Assembly (NCBI GenBank): GCA_964348275.1
Contig: CAYGBT010000010.1
Span: 21,424 to 85,423 of the forward strand
Direction of reading: 5' to 3'
Source: an uncultured bacterium
GTDB taxonomy: Bacteria > Methylomirabilota > Methylomirabilia > Methylomirabilales > CSP1-5
DNA: 64,000 nucleotides
Below are positions 5,253 through 47,965 of the stretch, one piece after another. Both the position numbers and the translations under genes were made by a program. Position 1 is the stretch's first letter. Each line of letters starts with the position of its first letter. The notes under the pieces were generated by a model that searched no databases, had not been told where the DNA came from, and saw nothing but the letters and a program-made list of their open reading frames with translations.

Positions 5253-5332
5253 GGGGGAAAAAAGGGGGGAAAAAGGGGATAAGAGGGGGAAAAAGGGGAT
5301 AAGTTCAATTATCTGTAAGTTCAATTATCTGT
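5253..5332. repeat. Purine-rich G-run array (GGGGGAAAAAGGGGATAAG x2 plus partial units) followed by a perfect tandem 16-mer AAGTTCAATTATCTGT x2
   Basis: Read directly: the 19-nt unit is at 5265-5283 and 5285-5303; the 16-mer is at 5301-5316 and 5317-5332. An inverted copy of the 19-mer lies at 6058-6075. Confidence 0.8.
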
Positions 5333-5366: not shown

Positions 5367-6053
5367 ATGCCTCGTACGGCCCGTACCGCTCCTGGTGGCG
5401 TGATCTTCCATGTGCTCAACCGTGCCAATGCGCGGATTCGGATCTTTGACGACGCCTCCGATTATCAGGCGTTCGAATGGCTATTGGCCGAGACGGTGGT
5501 GCGGGTGCCGATGCATCTCCTGGCCTACTGCATCATGCCAAACCACTGGCATTTGGTAGTCAGGCCCGAGCGGGACGGACAGCTCGGGAGATTCATGCAG
5601 CGACTGACCACCACGCATGCGCGCCGATGGCATCGGACCCGGGGAAGCGTCGGGAGCGGACACCTCTATCAGGGTACGTACAAATCATTCCCCGTTCAGG
5701 ATGACGAGCACTTTCTCACGGTGTGCCGGTACGTGGAGCAGAACGCCCTGCGGGCGGGCTTGGTCGAGCGGGCGGAGGACTGGCGATGGTCGAGCCTCTG
5801 GGCGCGGCTCCAAGGAGAGGCCGTTCAACAGAAGCCGATGCTGTCGATATGGCCAGTGCCCCTCCCGGACGATTGGCTTGCATTGCTGAACGAGTCCCTA
5901 TCATCGAAGGGGCTCGAGACCTTGAGGCTGTCGGTTCGGCGAGGCCGGCCGTACGGCAACGAGGCTTGGCAACAACGGATGGCTAAACGTCTGGGCTTGG
6001 AGTCTGCCTTCCGCCCCCGGGGTCGTCCCGGTAAAGAAGGGCGCGGTCAATAA
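5367..6053 (+). CDS. IS200/IS605-family Y1 (HUH) transposase, REP-associated tyrosine transposase (RAYT)-like
   Basis: HUH motif ...MPNHWHLVVRP...; catalytic-Tyr region ...CRYVEQNALRAGLVERAEDWRWSS..., as in RAYT/TnpA-REP proteins; single-gene unit flanked by inverted repeat arrays. Confidence 0.8.
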   Translation: MPRTARTAPGGVIFHVLNRANARIRIFDDASDYQAFEWLLAETVVRVPMHLLAYCIMPNHWHLVVRPERDGQLGRFMQRLTTTHARRWHRTRGSVGSGHLYQGTYKSFPVQDDEHFLTVCRYVEQNALRAGLVERAEDWRWSSLWARLQGEAVQQKPMLSIWPVPLPDDWLALLNESLSSKGLETLRLSVRRGRPYGNEAWQQRMAKRLGLESAFRPRGRPGKEGRGQ

Positions 6054-6056
6054 TGT

Positions 6057-6110
6057 ACTTATCCCCTTTTCCCCCTTCCCCTTTTCCCCCTTTTCCCCTT
6101 CGTACCTAGG
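6057..6110. repeat. Pyrimidine-rich array, inverted counterpart of the 5253-5303 G-run array
   Basis: CTTATCCCCTTTTCCCCC (6058-6075) is the reverse complement of GGGGGAAAAGGGGATAAG. It is followed by degenerate TTCCCC/TTTTCCCCC units. Confidence 0.8.
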
Positions 6111-6144
6111 CCCTCGGATGCCAGTGCAGATGAGACTTCATCAG

Positions 6145-7332
6145 CTACTCGTTGCCCCGACGATTTGGGGCCCCCTTCTTGCTCTTTCCCGCTTCCACCA
6201 AACGGCTGCCCAGAAGGTTCAGCTTGAATCTCCTCACCGTGTCAGGCGTCACAACCTCTCCCCTCGGGCTCCGGAAGTAAAGCGCGTCGAACGGACACTG
6301 CACGATGCACGCACCACACTGCACGCATTGCTCCGCCTTCGGTAGAGTCGCCAACTGCTGACGGTGGTCCACCTCGAAGACGTCCGTGGGGCACACCTGT
6401 TCACAGAAGCCGGCTCCCTTGCATCGCTCCGTGTCTAGACCGATCCGAAACCGGCGGTCTTCGTGCAAGCCACTCTTGTAAACCGGAGTGCTCCCCATCA
6501 GGTCCAGACTCAAAACCAGGACTACGACCAGGGAGCTCAGGCCCCAACGGAAAATCAGCGCCCAGGAAAAATAGCCGGCCAGGACTTCATAGCCAACGAG
6601 ACCAAGCAGGAAGAACAACCATAGGAGCAGCGGAATGCGTCGCTGACCGAAGTCGAAAAAAACGACGCCGACGCTCTTCCCTGTGCTACGGAGGCGTCCT
6701 TCGTAGAGGGGAAAGCTCAGGAAGATGAGAAGGGACAACCCCCAGACCAGACCCACAAGCGGGAGCACTCCCTCCCTCCAAAGTGGAAAGACGACGAGCG
6801 CACCAACAAGGGAAATTGGAAACGCCCAGGCGACGGCCATCTCGAGCCGCTGCGGCCACGGGAAACTCACCGTGCGCATTTCTACGGTTTTCTCGAGACC
6901 GCCACTCACGAAGGCGGGAATCGCAGCCGCGTAGACCGGTCCCCAGATGACCCTCCACCCGGCCTTCTTATGGATGACCTTGCCGTCAATGCCCGTTGCG
7001 GCGAGTTGCGGCAGGATCACGTGCCGGTGGTCCACGAGGTCTTCGATACCACTCGTCTTCAGGATCGAGACGACGTCGTGATTAGTCAATAGCCCCCCCG
7101 TCGCTGCACACCACACGTTGTGTCCGCGGCTGTTGGCAACGAGTAAGTATGTATCGATCCCTTCGAGGGCGCGCTTGACGCGTTCCACCGTGAGTCGGAA
7201 GTTGCAGGTGAGTAGGACCGGCGAATTACGGCCAGGGTTTCCGATCTTGACGAGACCCGTCTTACATGGAAACGGGAGAACACGGAGCAGGGTTTGGAGG
7301 ACATTCACCCAAACGAAACTGAGATGCCTCAC
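6145..7332 (-). CDS. Fused HgcA-like corrinoid/transmembrane protein with a C-terminal HgcB-like 2x[4Fe-4S] ferredoxin domain
   Basis: N-terminal domain with ...SRGHNVWCAATGG... (compare the HgcA cap-helix motif N(V/I)WCA(A/G)GK); about 4 hydrophobic helices; C-terminal CKGAGFCEQVCP and CVQCGACIVQCP. The GTG start overlaps the TGA of the upstream methyltransferase gene. Confidence 0.6.
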   Translation of the reverse strand: MRHLSFVWVNVLQTLLRVLPFPCKTGLVKIGNPGRNSPVLLTCNFRLTVERVKRALEGIDTYLLVANSRGHNVWCAATGGLLTNHDVVSILKTSGIEDLVDHRHVILPQLAATGIDGKVIHKKAGWRVIWGPVYAAAIPAFVSGGLEKTVEMRTVSFPWPQRLEMAVAWAFPISLVGALVVFPLWREGVLPLVGLVWGLSLLIFLSFPLYEGRLRSTGKSVGVVFFDFGQRRIPLLLWLFFLLGLVGYEVLAGYFSWALIFRWGLSSLVVVLVLSLDLMGSTPVYKSGLHEDRRFRIGLDTERCKGAGFCEQVCPTDVFEVDHRQQLATLPKAEQCVQCGACIVQCPFDALYFRSPRGEVVTPDTVRRFKLNLLGSRLVEAGKSKKGAPNRRGNE

Positions 7333-8027
7333 AGTGCTACTCCAGCGGGCTCTTGCGCCACGATTTCGATAAAGCTGCGCAGTGTGCTCCAGTTGACCGA
7401 TAGGATCGTTAGACCTGCGTTGGTCAGTCTATCCGGCAACTCCGCGATGGGATGCGTCGTTTGTTGAGTGATGATGTACGTAAGGGCCGCCAGAGGCACC
7501 TTGACCAACGACTGAACCACCCGGGTGGCAACGCTTCGAGGCTTGACCTCATCTGCGACGAGCAGAAGGCCTCCGGGCCTCAGGATTCGCCCCACCTGCT
7601 TAAGGGCGTACGCGAGCTCATCCTCGCTTAACTCAGAGAAGCAGAGGCCGCTCATCACTGCGTCGTAGCTCTGCGGCTCCTCGCCGTCCAGCTCGGCGAC
7701 GCCCATTTCTACGAGGTCGACGCGTTCCGCAAGGCCCGCCTCCCTCGCCCGCTGGGCAGCGATCTCGAGCATCTGGGAGTTGACATCTATCCCTTTCACC
7801 TTCGCGCCACGTCGGGCGGCTCGGAGCGTCAACGCGCCGGTGCCGCAGCCGAGATCCAGCACTCGCTGCCCGTGCTCAACGTGGCCCGCAAGGCGATCGT
7901 ACGCTCTCTCAAGGCGCCCGAGCGTGAGGAGGCGGATGCCGAGATCGTATCGGCCTGGGCTGGATTCTAGGATTCGCATCAGGACGTACGTGCTCATCTC
8001 GGGATCCGTTCTGCTGGTACCAACCAA
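7329..8027 (-). CDS. Class I SAM-dependent methyltransferase
   Basis: Motif I ...RVLDLGCGTGALT...; post-I ...KGIDVNSQML...; ...ILRPGGLLLVAD...; 232 aa. The true start may be the internal MSTYVLM. Confidence 0.85.
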   Translation of the reverse strand: MVGTSRTDPEMSTYVLMRILESSPGRYDLGIRLLTLGRLERAYDRLAGHVEHGQRVLDLGCGTGALTLRAARRGAKVKGIDVNSQMLEIAAQRAREAGLAERVDLVEMGVAELDGEEPQSYDAVMSGLCFSELSEDELAYALKQVGRILRPGGLLLVADEVKPRSVATRVVQSLVKVPLAALTYIITQQTTHPIAELPDRLTNAGLTILSVNWSTLRSFIEIVAQEPAGVAL

Positions 8028-9018
8028 CGCGCCTAGGTATCGCTAAATGCTCATTGACACTAAGGTAAATCAGCAAGCCGGGTGCCATCGGAAGGAGGGT
8101 TCTCCTACCAAGATCTAATTCCCGAATTCTTAAGCAAAAGAGCGGCCAGAGAGGGACGAAAAGAGGCAAATCCTCCGGGCCAACTGAGACACGGGTGCCT
8201 CAGCGCGGTCAGGGATACTACTCCCGAGAAACTGGGGAGCTAGGCACAAGCCCCCTGCATTCACCTGGGACAATCGTGTCCCCAGGTCACGAGGTTGTCC
8301 CAGGGGAGAGGGCCTAACTTTGCCGTCAGCAGCGCACGCGATCTTGGGACACCCGGGGGTGAATTGAGGCGGATAGGTAACCTGAGGACTGATAGACTTC
8401 TACTCCGATTCCATCCCCGATTCCCCTCTGCAGGGATCGATTATTGCCTAACCGTGGCCGGCTTCAGGGGCCTGGGGCAATCCCCCTGGTTGCGGGCAGG
8501 CCTTCAAACGCCCTGGCAGATTACTACCACAAATCAACTACAAATCAACAGTGGGAGGTGTGCTGATTTGCGCATTGCTGGACGCAGCGGTGACCTGCTG
8601 ATTGGTAATTCAGATGCAGCCTTCCGAACCCAAGAAAAACGGCTTGTTACAGGACGCTGCTACCAGAGTGCTACCAGCATGACCTCTACCCGGTGCTCAC
8701 CCAACCCAAAGGCTGACTAACATCTCTAGGAGTTTCCCAGCACCGAAACCCTTGCCCTTGACACCCCTGCCACATGAGGGGACATTTGAGGTCATCTCAG
8801 GTTTTGCATGGATGGAGCCGTGGTGAAGAAAAACTGTAACACTAGGAAACGGCAGCCCTCGCGGCGTCATGCTGCAGGGGCTTTTCTGTTGGGCGCAGTG
8901 ATCTGGCTCTTGCTGCTCAACCCTGCCGTGGCCAACCTTGACGCTTTGCCCCTTTTCCGATAGCATACCACCGCGTTTCAGCGTTTTCTTTTCAGAATAC
9001 TCATCGGTGGGTCGTGTC

Positions 9019-9312
9019 ATGACGCAGTTTTACTTCATGGTGGCCTTATTGTTGGCGACACTGGTGGCGATCTTTGCCGTCCAGAATGCCGAGGAGGTTA
9101 CGGTCCGCTTCCTCGTGTGGACATTCCAGACCTCGGTGGTCATCGTAATCCTCGTGTCCGCAGGCATGGGGGCTTTGTTGGCCGCCCTCATCAGCCTTCC
9201 GCAGACCATCAAGGCAAGGCGTCGACTCAGGCAGAGCGAAAGGAAACTCGAGCGTCTGGCCGTGGAGCTTGGCGGACCGGAAGGGTGGGGGGCGCCTCAC
9301 GAGGAGAAATAA
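9019..9312 (+). CDS. LapA-domain (DUF1049-like) small inner-membrane protein
   Basis: The ORF track gives 8938-9312. I prefer ATG 9019 (MTQFYFMVALLLATLVAIFAVQNAEEVTVRFLVW...), giving two TM helices and a basic coiled tail. Confidence 0.6.
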   Translation: MTQFYFMVALLLATLVAIFAVQNAEEVTVRFLVWTFQTSVVIVILVSAGMGALLAALISLPQTIKARRRLRQSERKLERLAVELGGPEGWGAPHEEK

Positions 9313-9360
9313 AAGGAGTCGGGTGAGTCAGGTCGCTACCAGCTCCATCGAGATCCGCGG

Positions 9361-9894
9361 ATGATCCGGTGTGGTTCCGGGTTGGGCACTGCTGTTGCCG
9401 GGGTGGGCTTCGTTTGCGTTCTGCTGGCCGGGTGTGCCACTACCGGACGAACCCTGGATGGTTTCTACGTAAACGAGGCGAAGGCTTTTCGGGTCCGGCT
9501 CCCTCAAGACGGGTGGCTGGTCATGGAATCGCCTCCTGGGGCCGACCTGGCCGTTCGGGATACGCGATCTGATGCGCGCATGGCGGTCTCGGCCAGTTGT
9601 CCCGGCCGAGAGACGGGTCCACTGCCTGCCCTGGTCCAGCATCTCTTGTTCGGGCTCCGTGACGTGGAACGCCTGCGACAAGAGCGCATCATGGTGGACG
9701 GGGCGGTCGGGATTGACGCGGTGATCAAAGCGAGGTGGGAGGGGACGCCCGTCCAGATCCGGAGTGTCGTGATCCGGCGGAAGGGATGCCTCTACGATCT
9801 CCTCTTTGTTGCGCCCCCAGAAACGTTTAGGGCCCGGAGCGCCGATTTTGACGCCTTCCTCGAAGGGTGGCAGTTTCTGTTGGAGGGGCCGTGA
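9361..9894 (+). CDS. Hypothetical lipoprotein
   Basis: Lipobox ...VLLAGCATTG; 177 aa; no domain recognised. Confidence 0.5.
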   Translation: MIRCGSGLGTAVAGVGFVCVLLAGCATTGRTLDGFYVNEAKAFRVRLPQDGWLVMESPPGADLAVRDTRSDARMAVSASCPGRETGPLPALVQHLLFGLRDVERLRQERIMVDGAVGIDAVIKARWEGTPVQIRSVVIRRKGCLYDLLFVAPPETFRARSADFDAFLEGWQFLLEGP

Positions 9895-10697
9895 GGCGTG
9901 CTGATGTCACACATCGCTTCTTCCTGATGCTCGGCGGCAGGGCCACCGAGTTGCTCGGGCAGCTCGGTGACGTGGCCATACTGGCCGGCCGGACCTTTTA
10001 CCAGGCGCTGAAGCCCCCCTACGAGATTCGGAGCCTGATTGTTCAGATGGACCACATTGGGGTCAAGTCGATCTCGATCTGTGGCATTGCGGCCGTCTTC
10101 ACCGGTCTTGTCCTCGCGCTGCAGACCACGTACGGGCTCGCCCGCTTTGGGGCCAAGGCCTACGTCGGGATCGTGGTTTCCCTGTCGATGGTGCGGGAGC
10201 TCGGGCCAGTGCTCACCGCCCTATTGGTGGGGGGACGGGTGGGATCTGGGATTACCGCCGAGCTCGGTGCCATGACGGTGACCGAGCAGATCGATGCCAT
10301 GCGAGCCATGGGGGCGAATCACATCAAGAAGCTGGTGGTCCCCCGCGTTTTGAGCGCCATGCTGGTACTGCCCCTGCTCACGGTCATGGCCGATGCGTTG
10401 GGGATCTTCGGAGGCATGGTGATCTCCCAATACGAGTTTCACGTGGACTCGCATCTGTACATGAGCACCATTTGGCGGAATCTCGCGCTGGCGGATCTCT
10501 TGAGTGGCCTGGGCAAGACGGTCGTCTTCGGCTTCCTCATTGGAATCATTGGTTGCTACAATGGCCTGGAGGTCTCGGGGGGGACCGAGGGTCTGGGGCG
10601 GGCGACCACGGCGACGGTCGTGACGTCGGCGATCCTCGTCCTGATCTCCGATTTCTTCCTGACCAAGTTCTTTTGGTGGCTGGAGATGCTTGCCTGA
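9867..10697 (+). CDS. mlaE: Phospholipid/lipid ABC transporter permease MlaE
   Basis: 276 aa; ...IVQMDHIGVKSISICGIAAVFTGLVLALQT... and ...ELGAMTVTEQIDAMRAMG... are MlaE/Ttg2B signatures. Confidence 0.9.
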   Translation: MAVSVGGAVRRADVTHRFFLMLGGRATELLGQLGDVAILAGRTFYQALKPPYEIRSLIVQMDHIGVKSISICGIAAVFTGLVLALQTTYGLARFGAKAYVGIVVSLSMVRELGPVLTALLVGGRVGSGITAELGAMTVTEQIDAMRAMGANHIKKLVVPRVLSAMLVLPLLTVMADALGIFGGMVISQYEFHVDSHLYMSTIWRNLALADLLSGLGKTVVFGFLIGIIGCYNGLEVSGGTEGLGRATTATVVTSAILVLISDFFLTKFFWWLEMLA

Positions 10698-11431
10698 TGA
10701 GCGAGGCCATCGAGCTTGTTCAATTGTACAAGGCCTTCGAGGGGAACGAGGTCCTCCAGGGATTAGATCTCGGGATCGAGGCGGGAGAGATCCTGACCAT
10801 CCTGGGAGGGAGCGGGACCGGCAAGAGTGTCCTCCTGAAGCTGATGATCGGACTCCTGAAGCCGGATGCAGGCCAGATCCTGGTTGAAGGGGACGACATC
10901 GTCCCGCTCAAGGAGGAGGAGCTGCTGAAGCTCAGGCGAAAGGTGGGCATGCTGTTTCAGGGCGCGGCCCTCTTTGACTCGTTGAGTGTGAAGGAAAACG
11001 TTGCCTTTCCCTTGAGGGAGCACACCCGGATGACCGAGAATGAGATCCGGGATCGGGTGGCGGAGGTCTTGTCGCTTGTGGGGATGAGCGGCACGGAGGC
11101 AAAATTTCCGGTGGAGCTCTCGGGAGGCATGCGGAAACGTGTGGGACTGGCCCGGGCGGTTGCCTTGACGCCGCGGATCGTCCTGTATGATGAACCGACG
11201 ACGGGCCTCGATCCCCGCAATGTGGACAAGATCAATGAACTGATCACCGACCTCCGCGCGAAACTCCATGTCACCTCGGTGGTGGTCACCCACGACCTGC
11301 AGAGCGCCTTTCGGATCTCGGACAGAGTCTCACTCCTTTCCGAGGGGCGGATCGCTGCCACCGGGACACCGGCAGAGATGGGCAGAGTTGAAAACGCGGC
11401 GGTTCAGGAATTTTTGGCTGGCCACCTGTGA
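10697..11431 (+). CDS. mlaF: ABC transporter ATP-binding protein MlaF
   Basis: I place the start at ATG 10697 (MSEAIELVQLYKAF), overlapping the mlaE TGA. Walker A GGSGTGKS, signature LSGGMRKR, Walker B IVLYDEPT. The track ORF 10472-11431 carries a spurious N-terminal extension. Confidence 0.9.
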   Translation: MSEAIELVQLYKAFEGNEVLQGLDLGIEAGEILTILGGSGTGKSVLLKLMIGLLKPDAGQILVEGDDIVPLKEEELLKLRRKVGMLFQGAALFDSLSVKENVAFPLREHTRMTENEIRDRVAEVLSLVGMSGTEAKFPVELSGGMRKRVGLARAVALTPRIVLYDEPTTGLDPRNVDKINELITDLRAKLHVTSVVVTHDLQSAFRISDRVSLLSEGRIAATGTPAEMGRVENAAVQEFLAGHL

Positions 11432-11585
11432 GAGTTCATAGTTCAGGGTTAAGGGTTCAGAGTAGAGAGTTCAGGGAAGATCGTGCAGGGTTCAGGGTCA
11501 AGAGTTGAGCATGTAGAGTTCAGAGGAACAAATCTTGCTGATCCATGAGCCATGAACCGTGAACTGTGAACAGTGAACGGAGAAC
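11432..11585. repeat. Heptamer-arm hairpin element filling the mlaF-mlaD spacer
   Basis: Left arm 11432-11522: 13 consecutive 7-nt units (GAGTTCA TAGTTCA GGGTTAA GGGTTCA ...). Right arm 11544-11585: CATGAGC CATGAAC CGTGAAC TGTGAAC AGTGAAC GGAGAAC, the complement of GTTCAnn. Confidence 0.8.
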
Positions 11586-11588
11586 TAG

Positions 11589-12701
11589 ATGCGGGATCGG
11601 GAGTTACAGATCAAACTTCGGGTCGGGATCTTCGTCCTCCTTCTCCTCATCCTCTTTGTAGCCTTTGTCCTGACGATCGGAGTGCAAACCCGCCTCTTCG
11701 AAGAACGGTACACCCTCCGATCCGCCTTTGGGGACGTGCAGGGACTGATCGTGGGGGCTCCCGTCCGTCTGGCCGGATTGACCGTGGGCACCGTGCAGCA
11801 GATCACCTTTGGTCCGGATATCGCCGATCCCCGCATCCATGTGGAGGTGACCATTGACGTGGACTTTCAGTCCCGCATCCGGGAGGACTCGGTGGCAAGC
11901 ATCGGGACCATCGGATTGGTTGGAGATAAGGTGTTCGAGATCACTGTGGGGAGCGAGAGCGCAAGGATCCTGCAGCCAGGGGAGGTTCTGCAGAGTGCAG
12001 AGCCGCTCGATTTTGCCCGTCTCGTGGGCCTCGGTGGAGACGTGTTGGAGAGTTTGGCGGATGCCAGCGGGGCCCTGAAAAAGATCCTCGGGAGTATGGA
12101 GGAAGGTCAGGGACTCCTTCCCACTTTACTTTCGGACGAAGTGGGTCGGGAACTGATCCGCGATCTGGCCGTCGTCGCAAGGAACCTCCGCACGCTTAGC
12201 GAGCGGGCGGAGAAAGGAGAGGGGCTTCTTGGCGCGTTGATGGCGAAGAAAGATGTTCCTTTAGTCGAGAACCTGAACCGCAGCGCCGTGCATTTGGAGC
12301 GCACGCTGAAAGAAATCCGCGAAGGGGAGGGGCTCCTCCATGCCCTCATCTTTGAGAAGGGCGGGGCGGACGTGGTGGAGGACCTCAAGCGGACCGCCGA
12401 GGGGTTGGACAAGGTGGTGGGGCGCCTGCGGGGCGGCGAGGGCCTCTTGGGAGCTCTACTCACCGAGGAGAGCAAGCGGCAGGTTCTTCAGGACCTTGGG
12501 GGGATCGTGGCTGACCTCAAGCGGATCACGAGGGCTCTGGCAGAGGGGAAGGGCACATTGGGGGCACTCATCCAGGACCCGACCGTATACGAAGACCTCT
12601 CAAGCCTCCTCCGAGGGGCGGAGCGGAGCTGGATCCTCCGGGGCCTCATTCGCTCCAGTGTCCGCGGGGGGGAGGATACGGTGGAAGAAGAAGAAAAGTG
12701 A
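11589..12701 (+). CDS. mlaD: MCE-domain protein MlaD with an extended helical C-terminus
   Basis: N-terminal TM plus MCE domain (...GLIVGAPVRLAGLTVGTVQQI...GLVGDKVFEI...). The C-terminal region carries five G-x-G-L-L-x-A-L repeats. Confidence 0.85.
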   Translation: MRDRELQIKLRVGIFVLLLLILFVAFVLTIGVQTRLFEERYTLRSAFGDVQGLIVGAPVRLAGLTVGTVQQITFGPDIADPRIHVEVTIDVDFQSRIREDSVASIGTIGLVGDKVFEITVGSESARILQPGEVLQSAEPLDFARLVGLGGDVLESLADASGALKKILGSMEEGQGLLPTLLSDEVGRELIRDLAVVARNLRTLSERAEKGEGLLGALMAKKDVPLVENLNRSAVHLERTLKEIREGEGLLHALIFEKGGADVVEDLKRTAEGLDKVVGRLRGGEGLLGALLTEESKRQVLQDLGGIVADLKRITRALAEGKGTLGALIQDPTVYEDLSSLLRGAERSWILRGLIRSSVRGGEDTVEEEEK

Positions 12702-12932
12702 GACAAGTAGTCAGATCAATCCGGCCGTGGCAGTTTCCCTTAGCGTAAGCCTATCTGGCCTTCACCAGTCAAGAGCGTTTGCGGACCCGCCAAGCTTTCC
12801 CTTTCTCACGGATCGATTTTTGCACGTTGCCTCTACTGGATTTCCTCTTTCTGTTCAGTGGACGATTCGCGGCCACGGATATCCGATAGTCCGTCAAGCA
12901 GGTGAAGGCTTGGGGAGATCGGGAAGGCCGCT

Positions 12933-15900
12933 GTGGTCCGTAGGGGGTATTTGGTGAAGCGAAAACTCCGGATTGCGAGACGAATTCTCCTGGGCCTGCT
13001 CGTCGTCGTTCTCCTCGTTGTCGCCGGGGTTCAAGTTGCCCTTTCAACTGAGGCGGTTCAACGGGTTCTCCGGACCCGCCTTGAAGGTCTGCTCAGTGGG
13101 CGGCTGCGGCAGGAGGTCCGGATCGGCGAGGTCTGGTTGAGCCCGTGGCTCAACTTTCTTGAGCTGCGTCAACTCGCCGTCAGCGGCCCAGGGCAAGCCC
13201 CTCTCCTCGAGATTTGGCGTGTCCGGTTTTACCCGGATCACAGTCGCCTTCTCCATCGGGTGCTGGCCTTTAAGAACGTAGTCCTGCTGCGTCCCGTCAT
13301 CCAGCTTCCCGAAGGACTCGAGGTCCCGGAAAGACCGCCAGGAGGGCTGGACGTCTCCCCGATTACTCTTGATGTCGATCGTCTTCAGATCCGGGAGGGG
13401 AAATTTATCTACGGCGGGGAGAAACGGATCTGGAACGCTCAGGGTCTTGATGCTGATCTCTGGAGAGAAGAGGCGCGGGTGCGAGGTGAAATTCGCGTCG
13501 CCGAGGGAGTGGTGCATCTGTCCGCGGAACCCCTGCACTGGGGAAAGCTCGAGGCAATTGTGGCCTTGGAGGAACAGGACCTGACCTTTACGCGTCTCGG
13601 GGTCGATGTGGGGCGAGGAGACTTCGGAGTGACCGGGCGGGTCCGGAACCTGATCGGTGGACCAAGCCTGGACGTCGAGCTGACCGCGCAATTTCCCTTT
13701 ACGTTTCGGCACTCCAGGCTGGGGACTCTCCGAATTGACGGCCAACTCACGGGGCCGGCACGTGCTCCCTCCTTTCAGGGGGTTGCCTGGATGCGCGGTG
13801 GCCCATGGCCTGACATGAGGATCATACTTTCCGGCGACCGAGAGGGGATCCAGGGCAAGGACCTGGCCCTGCGTCCCGCCTCAGGCGAGGTATCGGGGAG
13901 TTTCCACCTTGCGTGGAAAGACCTGAGCTACACCGCCGAAGTCCGAGGGCAGGGACTTGCTCTCGATCTGCTTATGGCTCCGAGTCTGGGGAACCTCCCG
14001 GTGACCGGGGCGGTCGCTGTCCAGGCCCTCGTGGAAGGCCGGGGTCTCACGGCTGCCGGTGTCGCGGCTCAGGCAACCTTTCAGGTCCGCTCGCTCCAGC
14101 GCCGAGATCAGCCCTCGATTGCGGGGAGCGCGGAGGGATACGTGAAGGCTACTGGGGGGCGCGTTTCTCTCGAACGCCTTCAGGTAGACCTTCCGCCCAA
14201 TCGTCTGACCGTGAAGGGATCGTTGTGGGAGGAGTTGAATCTCGAGGTGGCGGCAATCTCCCCGCGTGTTGATCGAGTCGGGCGACTCCTCGGGACAAAC
14301 GGGCTGAGGGGAAATGGCAAGGTGGTGGGTCGTGTGATGGGGACACTCACGGCTCCCACGTTTCAGGGGACCCTTACGTGGGACTCCGCCCGTCTCCTGA
14401 AGCGGGATTTCAAAAGCATTCATGGAAAGATCCAGCTCGAGCGGCGGCATCTGAGAGCCCCTCGCCTCGTTGTCACCAGAGGAAAAAGCACCGGGACGAT
14501 CCATCTCCGCTTGACCCTACCGGACAAGCCGGGGGTGCGTGACTTGAACGAGGATCTCCGGATCAACGCAAAGGGGCAGGTCAGTGGAGCCCCCGGAGAT
14601 TTTTTGTCCCTCTTTGTTCGGGAGAAGATCCCCGTCAGAGGGAGAATGACGCTGGAGGCGAGTGTGGACGGCGTTCCGGCCCAGCTTGAAGGACACGGGC
14701 ATGTATTAATCAAGGATGCCACCGTGCTCGGCGAACCGTGGCAAGCAATAGAGGCAGGCCTTGAATTGGAGCCTAAGCGTCTTCTTTTCGAAGAGGTCCG
14801 CCTGGCCCGCGGCGGCGAGCACGTGACGGGGAAAGGTCTCGTGCGACTCGAGGACGGCGGGATTAGTTTTCGCCTGGCCACGGCGGGGCTTTCGCTTGAG
14901 GGATTTCGGCTCTTCGAAGGAACAGACCTCCAAGGGAAGATGCACGGCGAGATGCACGGGGAAGGTCATCTTGAGAACCCGAGGATCCAGATGGACTACA
15001 CACTGAAGGGCCTCCGGTATAGCACGATTCCTCTAGGGAGTGGTCGCGGGAGCCTTTTGCTCGAGGACCAGGCGATGACCGCTCAATTGGCGCTCCCGGA
15101 ACGGGGCTATTCCGCAACGGGAAGGCTGCAGGCCGTCCGCCCGTATGCCTACAATGTGCGGGTCAGCATGAAGCAGGCGGACTTGACTCCCCTCTTTGGC
15201 CTGGCAGGCCTTTCTCTCCTGAAGGGGGGTGGGGGGACCGGTTCCGGAACAGGCCAGGTGCGCGGAAATCTCACGGCGCCCCGTCCATCCGAGAGGACCC
15301 TCCACCTCGAGGCTCCCTCGCTGCGCCTCCACGGAGTGACATTTCACACCGTCCGACCGATCCGTCTCGGGATGCAGGGAGACACGTTGACGATTGCTTC
15401 CCTTGCGGTGAGCGGAAAGCAGGGGTGGCTGAACGCTCGGGGAAACATTGCTCTTCACGGGAAGGCGGACGTCGATATTCGGGGGAAGATCCCGGTAGCG
15501 CTCCTGCGAGGGCTTGGGGCGGTTGCCGGAGGGAGTGGGGCCGCTGACCTGAAACTGAAGGTCTCCGGGCTCTGGGCCTCGCCCCGGTACGAGGGAGACA
15601 TGCAGTTGAAAGGGGCCCGCCTCCGACTGAAGGGACATCCAGAGGATTTTCAACGTATTGCCGGGCGCATGGATTTTCAGAAGACAGAAATTCGTATCCC
15701 GAGCCTGATTGGGAGGTGGGCCGGGGGGGAGGTGAAAATCTCAGGGACCGCATCCCGGACCCGGGGAAAGGAATGGCGGTGGGATCTCGATCTCATCCTT
15801 GATAAAGCAGACGGAGAGCGGGTCTTTGCCTGGGGAGACAGGAGGGGCAGGAGGAGAGTAACCGGTCGGACCTATCTTCAGGGGAAGCTTGCTGCCAGGG

Positions 15901-16442
15901 GGAGGTCTTGGCAAGAGTTGCAACACTCGCTGAGAGGAAAGCTCAGATTAGCCTTGAGGGATGGAACGTTCCGGCGATACACCGTGCTGGCCAACATCCT
16001 GCAAATCCTCAATCTCAATCCAGACCCTGTGAAAGGCGTTCCCTACGATTCCCTTGACGCGGACTTTCATCTGAAGCGGTGGGTTGCAAAGACCGAGGAT
16101 CTCAGGTTCGTCTCCGACACCGTGAAGATCAGCGGGGTGGGTACGATTGACCTGGGTCGCCGAAAAGTCGATATGCTCCTGGGGGTGCAACCCCTCCGCA
16201 CCGTGGACAAGGCCGTCCAATTTCTCAAACTGGGGAAGATCCCAGTCTTGGGCCGGCTCCTCTTCGGGAAGGAGCAGAGTGTCCTGGTAGTGGCAGTGGA
16301 GGTCAAGGGACCCCTGGACGGACCCAAGGTTGCCGCCGTGCCTGAGGAATCCCTCGGGCGGGGGGTCCTCGGTGTCATCCGCCGCGTGTTCGAGCTACCT
16401 GCGAAGCTAGTACCCTCCGGGAAATCGAGCAAATATCAGTGA
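12933..16442 (+). CDS. AsmA-family (TamB/AsmA-like) large envelope protein
   Basis: 1169 aa; N-terminal anchor ...RILLGLLVVVLLVVAGV...; beta-rich repetitive body; AsmA-like C-terminal region (...RYTVLANILQILNL...ISGVGTIDLGRRKVDMLLGVQPL...). GTG start at 12933; 12954 is also possible. Confidence 0.75.
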   Translation: MVRRGYLVKRKLRIARRILLGLLVVVLLVVAGVQVALSTEAVQRVLRTRLEGLLSGRLRQEVRIGEVWLSPWLNFLELRQLAVSGPGQAPLLEIWRVRFYPDHSRLLHRVLAFKNVVLLRPVIQLPEGLEVPERPPGGLDVSPITLDVDRLQIREGKFIYGGEKRIWNAQGLDADLWREEARVRGEIRVAEGVVHLSAEPLHWGKLEAIVALEEQDLTFTRLGVDVGRGDFGVTGRVRNLIGGPSLDVELTAQFPFTFRHSRLGTLRIDGQLTGPARAPSFQGVAWMRGGPWPDMRIILSGDREGIQGKDLALRPASGEVSGSFHLAWKDLSYTAEVRGQGLALDLLMAPSLGNLPVTGAVAVQALVEGRGLTAAGVAAQATFQVRSLQRRDQPSIAGSAEGYVKATGGRVSLERLQVDLPPNRLTVKGSLWEELNLEVAAISPRVDRVGRLLGTNGLRGNGKVVGRVMGTLTAPTFQGTLTWDSARLLKRDFKSIHGKIQLERRHLRAPRLVVTRGKSTGTIHLRLTLPDKPGVRDLNEDLRINAKGQVSGAPGDFLSLFVREKIPVRGRMTLEASVDGVPAQLEGHGHVLIKDATVLGEPWQAIEAGLELEPKRLLFEEVRLARGGEHVTGKGLVRLEDGGISFRLATAGLSLEGFRLFEGTDLQGKMHGEMHGEGHLENPRIQMDYTLKGLRYSTIPLGSGRGSLLLEDQAMTAQLALPERGYSATGRLQAVRPYAYNVRVSMKQADLTPLFGLAGLSLLKGGGGTGSGTGQVRGNLTAPRPSERTLHLEAPSLRLHGVTFHTVRPIRLGMQGDTLTIASLAVSGKQGWLNARGNIALHGKADVDIRGKIPVALLRGLGAVAGGSGAADLKLKVSGLWASPRYEGDMQLKGARLRLKGHPEDFQRIAGRMDFQKTEIRIPSLIGRWAGGEVKISGTASRTRGKEWRWDLDLILDKADGERVFAWGDRRGRRRVTGRTYLQGKLAARGRSWQELQHSLRGKLRLALRDGTFRRYTVLANILQILNLNPDPVKGVPYDSLDADFHLKRWVAKTEDLRFVSDTVKISGVGTIDLGRRKVDMLLGVQPLRTVDKAVQFLKLGKIPVLGRLLFGKEQSVLVVAVEVKGPLDGPKVAAVPEESLGRGVLGVIRRVFELPAKLVPSGKSSKYQ

Positions 16443-45262: not shown

Positions 45263-47656
45263 TTAGGTTTTTGTTTGTAGGAGGCGCAGACCGTTGAAGA
45301 TAACCAAAAGAGAGGCACCCATGTCCGCCCCGACCGCCATCCACAAGGTGGCATAGCCGGGGATGGCTAAGGCAAGGAACAGGGCCTTGATAGCGAGAGC
45401 AAGTGTAATATTTTGCTTCACAACGCGGACCGCACGGTGCCCGAGAGCAATCGCGAACGGGAGCTTCGTGAGGTCGTCAGCCATCAGGGCGACATCTGCC
45501 GTCTCCAGAGCCTGGTCGGTCCCGGCCGCTCCCATAGCGATGCCGATCGTGGCGGCCGCGAGTGCCGGGGCGTCGTTCACCCCGTCGCCCACCATTCCTA
45601 CAGTGCGGTATCGTCGCCTCAGTTCCCGGACCTGCTCCACCTTGTCCTCGGGTAAAAGATCTGCCAGGTATTCCTCGATGCCCAAGCGCTTTGCGACCGC
45701 TTCGGCAGTCCCCCAGTTATCGCCGGTGAGCATGACAAGCTTCCGCATGCCCGTCGCCCTCAATCCTCGGAGGACCTCAGCAACCTGTCCTCGCAACTGG
45801 TCGGCGATGGCGATAATCCCGACCGCCCCCGCTTGGGTTCCCAAGATAACGGTGGTCTTCCCCTCCGCTTCGAGTTCGTCCAGATTTGCTTCCACGTCCG
45901 AACTGCAAAAGCCCATCTCCTCGGCGAATCGGTGGTTCCCGATGAAAAAGCTCCGTCCCTCGATACGGGCTTGCGCCCCTCGTCCGGTTTGAGCCAGGAA
46001 CTCCTCCACCTCCGGCCACTCGATCCCGAGTTCACGCGCCTTCTGGACAATGGCCTGTCCGAGATGGTGCTCTGATCGGGCTTCGATGGCCGCCGCGATC
46101 CGCAACAGCTCCCGTTGGTCGCGGTTCACGGTTGACGGTTCACGGTTCACGGCAGGAGCAAGATCTTTCTGTGAACTGTGAACGGTGAACTGTGAACAGG
46201 TGAGGATGTCGGTCACGGCGGGAAAGCCGCGGGTGAGGGTCCCGGTCTTATCAAAAGCGATAGCCTTGAGCGCCCCAAGGCCTTCGAGGAAGCGTCCCCC
46301 CTTGATTAGGACGCCATTGCGGGCCGCTGTCGCCAGGCCGGAGACGATGGTCACTGGCGTGGAAATGACTAAGGCACAGGGACAGGAGATCACCAGAAGC
46401 ACGAGGGCTCGATAGAACCAGGAATCAAAGGGCTGGGCCAAAAAGAGAGGGGGGATGATGGCGATCAAAAACGCACCCGTAATGACCGAGGGGGTATAGT
46501 ATTTCGCAAACTGATCAACGAAACGCTGCGAGGGGGCCTTCTGGGCTTGTGCCTCTTGAACCAAATGGATGATTCGGGCGAGCGTCGTATCCGCAGCCAG
46601 ATGGGTAACCTCGATCTCAAGAGCCCCCTGCTGGTTAATGGTCCCGGCAAACACTTCGTCTCCTTCCCGCTTTTGTACCGGCATCGACTCGCCAGTGATG
46701 GGGGCCTGGTTTACCGCCGAGGCGCCCTTGATCACCTTTCCGTCGAGGGGAACCTTTTCGCCGGGCCTCACAATGAGCATGTCACCAAGTCGGATCTCTT
46801 CCACCGATAGTGTTTGCTCGTCTCCATTGCGACGAACGAGGGCCTGCGGCGGGGCCAGCTCCATCAAGGAACGAATGGCGGTCCGGGCGCGGTCCATACT
46901 GTAGGACTCCAAGAGTTCCGCGAGCGCGAAAAGGAAGGTGACGGTGGCTGCCTCGGCCCATTCGCCGATATACATGGCGCCGAGGATGGCGATGCTCATC
47001 AGGAAGTTGATATCCAGATTGAGTTGCCGCGCCGCCAAAAGGCCAGTCCGTGCGATGCGGTATCCTCCCGTCACCACAGCGGCCAGGTAAATCGGGACGG
47101 TGGTCTTCTGCGGAAACCCGAAGAGTGTGAGGGCCATTGCGGTCCCGGTGAGGCATCCTGAGGTCACGGTCAGGATGAGCTTCTTGTACCGTGTCCAGAA
47201 AGGATCGGGCGGTCTCCTCATTCGGCCGTCACCCACGGCCCGCGCGGTCATTCCCGTCTCGGCGACCGCTTCCAGGAGTTCATGGCGTGAGGTCTGCGTG
47301 GGGTCATGTTTGACCCGCAAACGCTGACCCACGACGTCGGCGGTGATTCCTTCAACCCCCGGCAGCGGGGATAGTTTTCTCTCTAGGGCCGCTACTTCGT
47401 CGGCGCAGTGCATCCCTTCGACCTCGAGGACCGAAGTGAGAGGGCCGGTGGCATCACCAAGTTGGTAGCCGAGAGCCTCCATCCGCTGGCGGATAACGGC
47501 CAGGTCCGCCTCCCGGTCACCCGGCTCGACGTGGAGCTTTCCTGACCCAAGGTCCACCTGTGCTGCCTTGATGCCGGGGAGGCTGGCGATGGCCTGCTCG
47601 GCCAGCGTAGCACAGGCAGCGCAGTGTATCCCGTTGATCGACAGCTCAATGTGCAT
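45263..47656 (-). CDS. P1B-type heavy-metal ATPase, ZntA/CadA-like (Zn/Cd/Pb type)
   Basis: HMA ...INGIHCAACA...; TM6 ...ISCPCALVISTP...; ...DKTGTLT...; ...GDGVNDAPAL... I prefer ATG 47656 (MHIELSING). The track ORF extends to a TTG at 47953, past a promoter-like site. It contains a 75-nt repeat insertion. Confidence 0.9.
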   Translation of the reverse strand: MHIELSINGIHCAACATLAEQAIASLPGIKAAQVDLGSGKLHVEPGDREADLAVIRQRMEALGYQLGDATGPLTSVLEVEGMHCADEVAALERKLSPLPGVEGITADVVGQRLRVKHDPTQTSRHELLEAVAETGMTARAVGDGRMRRPPDPFWTRYKKLILTVTSGCLTGTAMALTLFGFPQKTTVPIYLAAVVTGGYRIARTGLLAARQLNLDINFLMSIAILGAMYIGEWAEAATVTFLFALAELLESYSMDRARTAIRSLMELAPPQALVRRNGDEQTLSVEEIRLGDMLIVRPGEKVPLDGKVIKGASAVNQAPITGESMPVQKREGDEVFAGTINQQGALEIEVTHLAADTTLARIIHLVQEAQAQKAPSQRFVDQFAKYYTPSVITGAFLIAIIPPLFLAQPFDSWFYRALVLLVISCPCALVISTPVTIVSGLATAARNGVLIKGGRFLEGLGALKAIAFDKTGTLTRGFPAVTDILTCSQFTVHSSQKDLAPAVNREPSTVNRDQRELLRIAAAIEARSEHHLGQAIVQKARELGIEWPEVEEFLAQTGRGAQARIEGRSFFIGNHRFAEEMGFCSSDVEANLDELEAEGKTTVILGTQAGAVGIIAIADQLRGQVAEVLRGLRATGMRKLVMLTGDNWGTAEAVAKRLGIEEYLADLLPEDKVEQVRELRRRYRTVGMVGDGVNDAPALAAATIGIAMGAAGTDQALETADVALMADDLTKLPFAIALGHRAVRVVKQNITLALAIKALFLALAIPGYATLWMAVGADMGASLLVIFNGLRLLQTKT
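46124..46198. repeat. Heptamer-arm hairpin inserted in frame within the ATPase coding sequence
   Basis: GTTCACG GTTGACG GTTCACG GTTCACG, a 19-nt loop, then GTGAACT GTGAACG GTGAACT GTGAACA. That is 75 nt, or 25 codons (CSQFTVHSSQKDLAPAVNREPSTVN on the coding strand). Confidence 0.85.
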
Positions 47657-47791
47657 GGTCCGTTTCACGCCGAGTTTCCTGATGGATGTAATCTGGTCAA
47701 TGAGTTGCAAGAACAGGGCCCAGTTGTCCCGCGGATTCTGCGCCGCCCTTCCGTGGGGTTCAAGAGCCCTGAGGCATCCCGCTCTCCACTC

Positions 47792-47820
47792 ATTATCGAG
47801 AATAGTCGAAAAAATATCAA
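47792..47820 (-). promoter_or_regulatory. Sigma70-like promoter for the ATPase gene (TTGATA-N17-GATAAT)
   Basis: On the minus strand, TTGATA (47820-47815), a 17-nt spacer, then GATAAT (47797-47792), in a locally AT-rich patch about 135 nt upstream of ATG 47656. Confidence 0.35.
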
Positions 47821-47965
47821 TCAGCGTGGGGGGAGTCAAGGAGGGGCATCGTCGAGCATTGAGTGGGGACCCATCAGGGTTATGCCAACAAAGGCGTGAC
47901 TCTGGGCCGGTGAGGGAAGGGTGGGGTGCACGGCGCAAAGACATACTTGACAAACTTAATTATTA

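Follow-up and report, generated by a model that had tools for sequence, protein, structure and literature searches.

A CpaM and HgcAB-like gene pair in an uncultured Methylomirabilota bacterium as a typical representative of a widespread candidate membrane corrinoid methyl-transfer system

The window analyzed here, a 64,000-nucleotide stretch of contig CAYGBT010000010.1 (GenBank assembly GCA_964348275.1) from an uncultured bacterium of the Methylomirabilota, carries on its minus strand two overlapping genes, one for an S-adenosylmethionine (SAM)-dependent methyltransferase and one for a 395-aa membrane protein that resembles the mercury methylation proteins HgcA and HgcB joined into a single chain. 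Both open reading frames (ORFs) lie where an original prediction, made from the letters alone, had put them, at 6145-7332(-) (395 aa) and, as the longest ORF, at 7329-8027(-) (232 aa). The features of this cassette are the following:

6145..7332, minus strand: HgcAB-like fusion gene, 395 aa, GTG start backed by alignment, match to NCBIfam NF043039
7329..7997, minus strand: cpaM, class I SAM-dependent methyltransferase, 222 aa, ATG at 7997, TGA at 7329-7331
7329..7332, minus strand: GTGA start/stop overlap (translational coupling), read from the sequence
7340..7343, minus strand: Shine-Dalgarno-like GGAG, 7 nt upstream of the GTG, within the 3' end of cpaM
6898..7275, minus strand: predicted corrinoid-binding Rossmann-like domain, residues ~20-145, from Pfam CdhD, PDB CFeSP, and Foldseek matches
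7093..7119, minus strand: cap helix N72-G80 (NVWCAATGG), Cys75 codon at 7108-7110, helix 73-78 in the model
6502..6858, minus strand: predicted four-helix transmembrane domain, residues ~159-277, from hydropathy and the AlphaFold2 model
6268..6447, minus strand: C-terminal ferredoxin-like domain, residues ~296-355, seven cluster Cys, Fer4 matches
6388..6423, minus strand: first Fe-S motif, C304-x2-A307-x2-C310-x3-C314-P, three Cys only
6292..6327, minus strand: second Fe-S motif, C336-x2-C339-x2-C342-x3-C346-P, complete

The gene pair and its protein domains

The 395-aa protein scores 457.6 bits against the NCBIfam equivalog NF043039, "HgcAB-like fusion protein" (cutoff, 285 bits), with residues 9-352 on profile positions 2-350 of 350, and the methyltransferase scores 288.9 bits against the hypothetical equivalog NF043040, "corrinoid protein-associated methyltransferase CpaM" (cutoff, 180 bits), with residues 13-225 of the 232-aa ORF on positions 1-215 of 216. 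More than 2,284 homologues of the 395-aa protein were found. The same protein falls below the models for true HgcA (NF040863; 152.4 bits versus a cutoff of 275, with only profile positions 30-173 of 325 matched), for HgcB (NF040864; HgcB_ferredoxin, 50.3 bits versus 99), and for the CFeSP gamma subunit (NF003195; 90.6 bits versus 306). By these profile scores, the window pair consists of typical members of an already catalogued family, the curated NCBIfam pair HgcAB_like/CpaM. Fused HgcAB-like paralogs form a clade that mercury studies have long described (Podar 2015; Gilmour 2018; Capo 2022; Lin 2023). The partnership with CpaM is encoded in NCBI model names only: targeted literature searches for CpaM found no paper describing it, the acronym being shared with unrelated subjects.

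The junction between the genes, a GTG start laid over a TGA stop, is legible directly in the sequence, as had been pointed out. The GTG start is real, since homologue N-termini (MKHLxF..., from many phyla) align at residue 1, the GGAG precedes it by 7 nt, and it agrees with an independent gene call, in which an identical 395-aa protein on another contig shows the same 4-nt overlap with its upstream gene. Sequences identical to the window proteins are already present in public collections. The start of the methyltransferase had to be revised. The original prediction took the 232-aa ORF from TTG 8027, which is displaced by ATG 7997 (222 aa), because CpaM homologues almost all begin MSTY(V/I)LM and are ~222 aa long and the exact 222-aa product from this ATG is already recorded as a called gene elsewhere. 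From these alignments, the CpaM start is almost certainly ATG 7997, with the extension to TTG 8027 probably untranslated.

Along the single polypeptide of the HgcAB-like protein, a corrinoid domain with a cap-helix Cys is followed by a transmembrane (TM) domain and a C-terminal ferredoxin domain, with Pfam placing CdhD at residues 20-141 (E 3.5e-16) and several Fer4 families at 297-355. The suggested search with HgcA and HgcB profiles returned matches of residues ~20-145 to CdhD/CFeSP and HgcA_corrinoid models. The SRGHNVWCAATGG motif is present in the ORF, and N72, V73, W74, C75, G79, and G80 are invariant in the homologue alignment. Over 201 HgcAB-like sequences, which underlie all family-wide motif counts given here, the cap helix reads N(V/I)WC(A/S/G)(A/S)(T/A/V/S)G, with the Cys in 201/201; the conserved cap-helix Cys of true HgcA (C93 of P. 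mercurii) therefore has a counterpart in the invariant Cys75. The replacement of GK by TG was also read correctly, as the helix is NVWCAATG here and ends in GK in none of the 201 members; the high-stringency HgcA motif of Hg-MATE, N(V/I)WC(A/S)(A/G/S)GK, requires GK (PMC10087281).

There is no solved structure of HgcA, and the nearest solved chains by sequence are large-subunit corrinoid domains of CFeSP (2h9a, 4c1n, and 4djd; E 3e-13 to 2e-10). In these chains, Cys75 is aligned to the Thr of SVLTAW, which is the cap-helix residue below cobalt, at the position equated with HgcA Cys93. An AlphaFold2 (AF2) model of the 395-aa protein from a diverse 134-sequence alignment (pLDDT 86.2, pTM 0.85), which replaced an earlier, unusable model from 25 close homologues (pLDDT 49), contains a Rossmann-like domain in which residues 73-78 form a short helix, followed by four TM helices and a domain with the ferredoxin fold. 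Its top Foldseek match is the deposited computational HgcAB model 9a0b_A, followed by experimental CFeSP corrinoid domains with a root-mean-square deviation (rmsd) of 1.5-1.7 A over 126-128 residues, and its C terminus matches the HgcB model and 2x[4Fe-4S] domains. When superposed on CFeSP, the AF2 model has the NVWCAA helix inside the corrinoid-binding Rossmann fold. Alignment and model agree that the 395-aa protein carries a predicted corrinoid-binding domain of the HgcA/CFeSP type with a conserved cap-helix Cys.

The four hydrophobic helices reported earlier are present by hydropathy, and AF2 places them at residues 159-181, 186-217, 232-252, and 257-277. True HgcA has five TM helices (PMC11588087). 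The HgcA-like architecture that had been claimed stands for the corrinoid domain but not for the TM domain past its first helix, where the HgcA model is unmatched. Positive charges lie in loops 209-233 and 279-300, and since there are four TM helices, the corrinoid and ferredoxin domains are both predicted to be on the cytoplasmic side.

Two ferredoxin motifs had been announced and both are found, but the first, CKGAGFCEQVCP, has three Cys instead of four. Its second position is non-Cys in 199/201 family members (Ala in 180, Val in 13, others in the remainder), while the second motif is complete in 196/201 and has all four Cys invariant in the homologue alignment. Because the first motif is without its second Cys, the domain has seven cluster Cys and not eight, and by its motifs it is a 7-Cys ferredoxin rather than a 2x[4Fe-4S] ferredoxin as in HgcB. 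The C-x5-C-x3-CP motifs of SdhB/FrdB and of 7Fe ferredoxins are a precedent for [3Fe-4S], and by analogy we predict one [3Fe-4S] or site-differentiated [4Fe-4S] cluster plus one [4Fe-4S] cluster. The absence of the C-terminal Cys-Cys of HgcB is borne out, with no Cys after C346 and a CC tail in 0/201, and for this reason C73, C94, and C95 of HgcB, described as crucial (PMC11588087), are without counterpart. HgcB has been argued to be a plain electron mediator because both of its clusters have four Cys (Zheng et al. 2024, PMC11588087), which is why the 3-Cys motif matters.

On the methyltransferase side, the VLDLGCGTG noted earlier is present and, as motif I, is invariant in the CpaM alignment together with D71 and E97/E102. 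Pfam assigns the protein to Methyltransf_25 (E 4.6e-22), and PDB matches span the core only (residues 33-156). CpaM is thus predicted from its conserved motifs to be an intact SAM-binding class I methyltransferase.

Association of CpaM with the corrinoid protein across genomes

The pairing of methyltransferase and fusion protein, which the original prediction proposed to look for in other genomes, is found well beyond this contig. Among 80 genome loci retrieved with the HgcAB-like protein from many bacterial and archaeal phyla, CpaM lies directly upstream on the same strand in ~74. These include Gammaproteobacteria, Binatia, Gemmatimonadota, Acidobacteriota, Myxococcota, Desulfobacterota, Chloroflexota, Spirochaetota, Bacteroidota/Chlorobiota, Fidelibacterota, Methanococcoides, Methanofastidiosia, and others. 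The remaining loci comprise four ended by a contig edge and three with CpaM 450-670 bp off, and only two (L021 and L022) are without CpaM despite room for it. In the reciprocal test, based on metagenome loci retrieved with the CpaM profile, full-length CpaM loci (L081-L110) have an HgcAB-like gene a few bases downstream wherever the sequence suffices, and loci of generic class I methyltransferases (L112-L160) never do. The pairing is almost obligate in both directions, across Bacteria and Archaea.

A 4-nt overlap is the commonest junction (39 of 81 loci) and is also seen in the gene calls of three relatives (L161, L162, and L164). All-against-all ORF clustering of the 81 loci found no third gene conserved across phyla, only these two; a TetR-type gene recurs in nine loci, and only one lineage has an MMPL/LolA-like set. 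In six loci of that kind, from Fidelibacterota/Marinimicrobia-type metagenome-assembled genomes (MAGs) (L059, L063, L065, L069, L071, and L077), the pair sits among genes for TetR, LolA-like, and putative outer-membrane proteins, along with a saccharopine-dehydrogenase-like gene and a 915-aa MMPL/RND transporter, a neighborhood that possibly represents a lipid-export context or merely shared ancestry.

The same modules also occur fused. One metagenome locus (L109) encodes a protein of 551 aa that matches CpaM in its N-terminal half (219 bits; cutoff, 180) and the full HgcA profile in its C-terminal half (30-322 of 325). The genes of this locus follow the order HgcC (above cutoff), CpaM::HgcA-like fusion, and a separate HgcB-like ferredoxin with two complete motifs. 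This operon is intermediate in form between true HgcAB and the window cassette. On its contig (Ga0315296_10023111; L109:1457-4352), the operon opens with an ArsD-like CC-motif protein that has no family match. A search with the L109 fusion returned at least 120 clusters of 527-595 aa with methyltransferase and CdhD domains both present, from Hodarchaeales, Lokiarchaeota/Promethearchaeota, Anaerolineae, and others, some of them named CpaM by NCBI. The methyltransferase is N-terminal to the cap helix in 114/114 fusions, and the helix reads NVWCAA(G/R)G. Four triple fusions (P0134, P0149, P0203, and P0235; 587-595 aa) join methyltransferase, corrinoid domain, four TM helices, and ferredoxin in one chain. 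The occurrence of the same modules in three fusion states is strong evidence that the four modules form one enzyme. Both Fe-S motifs are complete (4 Cys) in the triple fusions, unlike in the window's clade, which marks the 3-Cys motif as a specialty of that clade.

A proposed methyl-transfer system and its alternatives

We read the two genes, with a slight preference for this over other readings, as encoding one membrane-anchored enzyme system in which CpaM loads the methyl group of SAM onto a Cys-ligated corrinoid, with the Fe-S domain returning the cobalt to its reduced state. In such a cycle, the Fe-S domain would supply low-potential electrons to give Co(I), and CpaM would present SAM, so that the methyl group would pass to Co(I) and form a Cys-thiolate-ligated CH3-Co(III), as in true HgcAB. 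An electrophile at the face of the membrane would then accept the methyl group as the equivalent of a carbanion or radical, which would leave Co(III) or Co(II), and electrons and SAM would be needed at every turnover; this double input would explain why the modules travel together. The original prediction of a membrane corrinoid methyl-transfer module co-translated with a SAM methyltransferase is supported by fold, pairing, and coupling, and its suggestion that the methyltransferase acts as methyl donor or loader is strengthened by the CpaM::HgcA-like fusions and by the published SAM dependence of HgcAB. In purified HgcAB, SAM and not methyl-tetrahydrofolate (methyl-THF) methylates Co(I), the Me-Co(III) species has a Cys-thiolate lower ligand, and HgcB supplies the electrons (Zheng et al. 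2024, PMC11588087).

The acceptor is very probably not Hg(II), since the Hg-handling Cys of HgcB are absent and the assayed carriers of fused HgcAB make no methylmercury. Methanococcoides methylutens and Pyrococcus furiosus, both with fused hgcAB, show no Hg methylation (PMC5893877; PMC10087281), and a Methanococcoides locus in our set (L020) encodes a protein 62% identical to the window protein with a CpaM homologue upstream.

Several observations weigh against a loading role for CpaM. To our knowledge, no characterized class I Rossmann methyltransferase methylates a protein-bound corrinoid. Fusion of genes and domains establishes that the two are partners but does not tell which way the methyl group moves. 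True HgcAB, when purified, needs no additional methyltransferase to use SAM (PMC11588087), and by analogy the corrinoid/TM protein may bind SAM itself, with CpaM serving another role. In CpaM, the loop after beta4 (SGLCFSE) is strongly conserved and the C-terminal third is hydrophobic and specific to the family, features that resemble a site for a small-molecule or lipid substrate. The 3-Cys motif may hold a [3Fe-4S] cluster of higher potential, which would be poorly suited to reducing Co(II) to Co(I). Finally, two loci (L021, at 6001-7164, and L022) hold intact HgcAB-like genes, 70-71% identical to the window protein, but lack a CpaM homologue within 13 kb; upstream of the HgcAB-like gene of L021 is a divergent alpha/beta-hydrolase gene.

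In the main alternative, which we regard as somewhat unlikely, CpaM and the corrinoid protein would act in one pathway without a direct methyl relay. The HgcAB-like protein would take the SAM methyl itself, and CpaM would add a methyl group at a second position of the substrate or product or, instead, to a lipid of the membrane or a quinone-like molecule that the TM domain handles. That the SAM-to-Co(I) step of true HgcAB needs no extra methyltransferase fits this picture, as do the putative substrate loop and hydrophobic C-terminal segment of CpaM, and the best non-family matches of CpaM are quinone C-methyltransferases (MpqE and UbiE/MenG). These matches are far below their cutoffs, however, and the UbiE similarity, limited to core residues 33-156, is generic to class I methyltransferases. 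The Fidelibacterota-type loci, with the pair among MMPL, LolA-like, and TetR genes, also point toward lipids, but this context is found in one lineage only. The position of the methyltransferase directly N-terminal to the corrinoid domain in all 114 fusions is what is expected of a loader.

In methionine synthase (MetH), an AdoMet domain and flavodoxin reactivate inactive Co(II). By analogy, CpaM and the ferredoxin domain might be a repair module only, performing reductive methylation of Co(II), with the main donor or chemistry elsewhere (methyl-THF, a methylated substrate, or Co(I)-dependent reductive dehalogenation). Halomethane dehalogenation by HgcAB, reported in a 2026 preprint, and a methylenetetrahydrofolate reductase (MTHFR) gene just upstream in one relative (L164) are consistent with such a role, which we nevertheless consider unlikely: the MTHFR neighbor is a single case, no conserved pterin-type or MT1/MT2-type methyltransferase is found nearby in the 81 loci, and SAM is the catalytic donor in HgcAB.

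It is highly improbable that the protein is a true mercury methylase, that is, a functional fused HgcAB. The cap-helix Cys, corrinoid fold, membrane anchor, and ferredoxin domain are common to both, but the HgcA and HgcB models score below cutoff (152 versus 275 and 50 versus 99 bits), the cap helix has TG and not GK, there is no equivalent of HgcB C73 or CC, and the assayed organisms with fused hgcAB make no methylmercury. True-HgcAB identity was rejected on profile scores, GK motif, Fe-S motif, and C73/CC. A CFeSP-type methyl carrier of the Wood-Ljungdahl/acetyl-CoA decarbonylase pathway, suggested by the Pfam CdhD and CFeSP gamma-subunit similarity, is effectively refuted by domain architecture and gene context, since only the C-terminal corrinoid domain is in common (profile positions 265-386 of 387; 90.6 bits versus 306), the protein is membrane anchored without a TIM barrel, N-terminal cluster domain, or small subunit, and neither the window nor the related loci contain acs/cdh genes.

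The finding has its significance at the family level, the window instance itself mattering little. Fused HgcAB-like genes are routinely caught in mercury methylation surveys, though the assayed carriers make no methylmercury. A TG, GG, or RG in place of GK, a 7-Cys ferredoxin, four TM helices, and CpaM could serve as markers of the paralog versus true Hg methylases in metagenomes. A "UbiE methyltransferase" has been drawn beside marine Nitrospina HgcA-like genes, which are without hgcB and group with the fused-HgcAB clade (bioRxiv 10.1101/648329; 10.1101/2022.11.21.517362). If this UbiE is CpaM, as it may be, the value of Nitrospina "hgcA" as an indicator of Hg methylation would be affected. 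As a tentative possibility, we suggest that the CpaM/HgcA-like set is a single, very widespread SAM/B12 membrane methylation machine with a non-mercury substrate. It would comprise the window cassette, the fused CpaM::HgcA proteins found in Asgard archaea and Chloroflexi, and perhaps also the open-ocean Nitrospina "hgcA" with its linked UbiE, and the 3-Cys cluster of the window's clade would be a functional specialization. That cluster, as [3Fe-4S] or site-differentiated [4Fe-4S], could talk to the membrane or bind a ligand and not be a plain wire. If true, many environmental counts of "hgcA-like" genes would report a different pathway of organometal(loid) or lipid methylation. The question of the family substrate becomes more testable with the natural fusions and the 7-Cys ferredoxin.

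Genomic surroundings and comparison with known systems

The cassette is preceded by a long intergenic region:

7998..9018, no strand: upstream gap of cpaM, 1,021 bp, no detectable gene or RNA

This is the exact span of the ~1 kb of noncoding DNA reported earlier. It is unusually long for a bacterial intergenic region, has a GC content of 55.6% versus 59.8% for the window, and presumably holds the promoter. Searches of the gap found no cobalamin riboswitch or other Rfam RNA at the gathering threshold or at E<=5, its two internal ORFs are without a Pfam match, and a decayed gene was sought by blastx/blastn against 164 loci with no similarity except to the same-species contig L161. No minus-strand sigma-70-like promoter was found in the gap, and consensus scans for operon promoter and terminator were not above shuffled expectation.

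On one side of the cassette lie a peptide ABC transporter and a RAYT-like gene and on the other LapA/Mla/YhdP envelope genes, beyond which Mfd, SurA, and TsaD are encoded. The accessory context that had been inferred holds in part: the cassette is found in differing contexts in close relatives, but here it has host GC and sits in core chromosome. In the closest relatives, MAGs of Binatia and Methylomirabilales (81% identity), the same cassette, with a 222-aa CpaM and the 4-nt overlap, stands amid unrelated neighborhoods, and for this reason it is a unit that changes location as a whole. Recent horizontal acquisition was rejected on composition, the pair having 60.4% GC versus 59.8% for the window.

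The envelope-lipid run (9019-16442, plus strand) holds a LapA-domain gene (probable ATG at 9019), an unknown 177-aa protein, MlaE, an MlaF-like ABC ATPase, MlaD, and a 1,169-aa YhdP/DUF748 protein. The RAYT element called earlier is present at 5367-6053 by its Pfam Y1_Tnp match, with an NCBIfam REP_Tyr_transpos score of 70 bits just below the cutoff of 80. It is flanked by inverted GGGGAAAAAGGGG-like arrays of ~3 units per side (5254-5307, plus strand, and 6054-6099, minus strand), which are G/A-rich and not classical palindromic REPs; 12 of the 17 window matches of the unit sit in these flanks, and 17 matches were reached in 0/100 shuffles. A perfect tandem 16-mer, TAAGTTCAATTATCTG x2, occurs at 5300-5331. 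A heavy-metal P1B ATPase (Zn/Cd/Pb/Hg type) with N-terminal metal-binding domains is encoded 38 kb off, at 45263-47953(-), with no evident link.

Compared with its own family, the window cassette is unremarkable. The HgcAB-like protein is 62-81% identical to NF043039 members from Binatia, Methylomirabilales, and Methanococcoides, and nothing sets it apart beyond the minor features of His71 (mostly Val elsewhere) and a longer C-terminal tail. CpaM is full length and, as in its family (NF043040), located immediately upstream with the 4-nt overlap, without any difference. The CpaM::HgcA-like fusions (~540 aa; L109, Asgard archaea, and Anaerolineae) show the same modules and the same partnership but differ in the fused methyltransferase, the HgcA-like five-helix TM domain, and the separate ferredoxin with two 4-Cys motifs.

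Like HgcA/HgcB (Parks 2013; Zheng 2024), the window system would combine a corrinoid with a cap-helix Cys lower ligand, a membrane anchor, and a ferredoxin partner, with SAM as the likely ultimate methyl source. Unlike HgcA/HgcB, it has TG instead of GK, four TM helices where HgcA has five, a fused ferredoxin with a 3-Cys first motif, no C73/CC tail, and an obligatory separate SAM methyltransferase partner, which is absent from HgcAB. With the large subunit of CFeSP (AcsC/CdhE; 2h9a, 2ycl, and 4djd), it shares the predicted corrinoid fold (1.5 A rmsd, ~31% identity) and the cap-helix residue under cobalt, whereas CFeSP has Thr at the Cys position, is a soluble heterodimer, receives its methyl group from methyl-THF via MeTr, and passes a methyl cation to Ni. 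The combination of cobalamin, SAM, and low-potential electrons recalls the MetH reactivation module and the class B radical SAM methylases; the latter have a 3-Cys site-differentiated cluster on CxxxCxxC, where the window motif is instead the ferredoxin-type C-x5-C-x3-CP, and in sequence and fold the window pair is related neither to the AdoMet domain of MetH nor to the TIM barrel of radical SAM enzymes.

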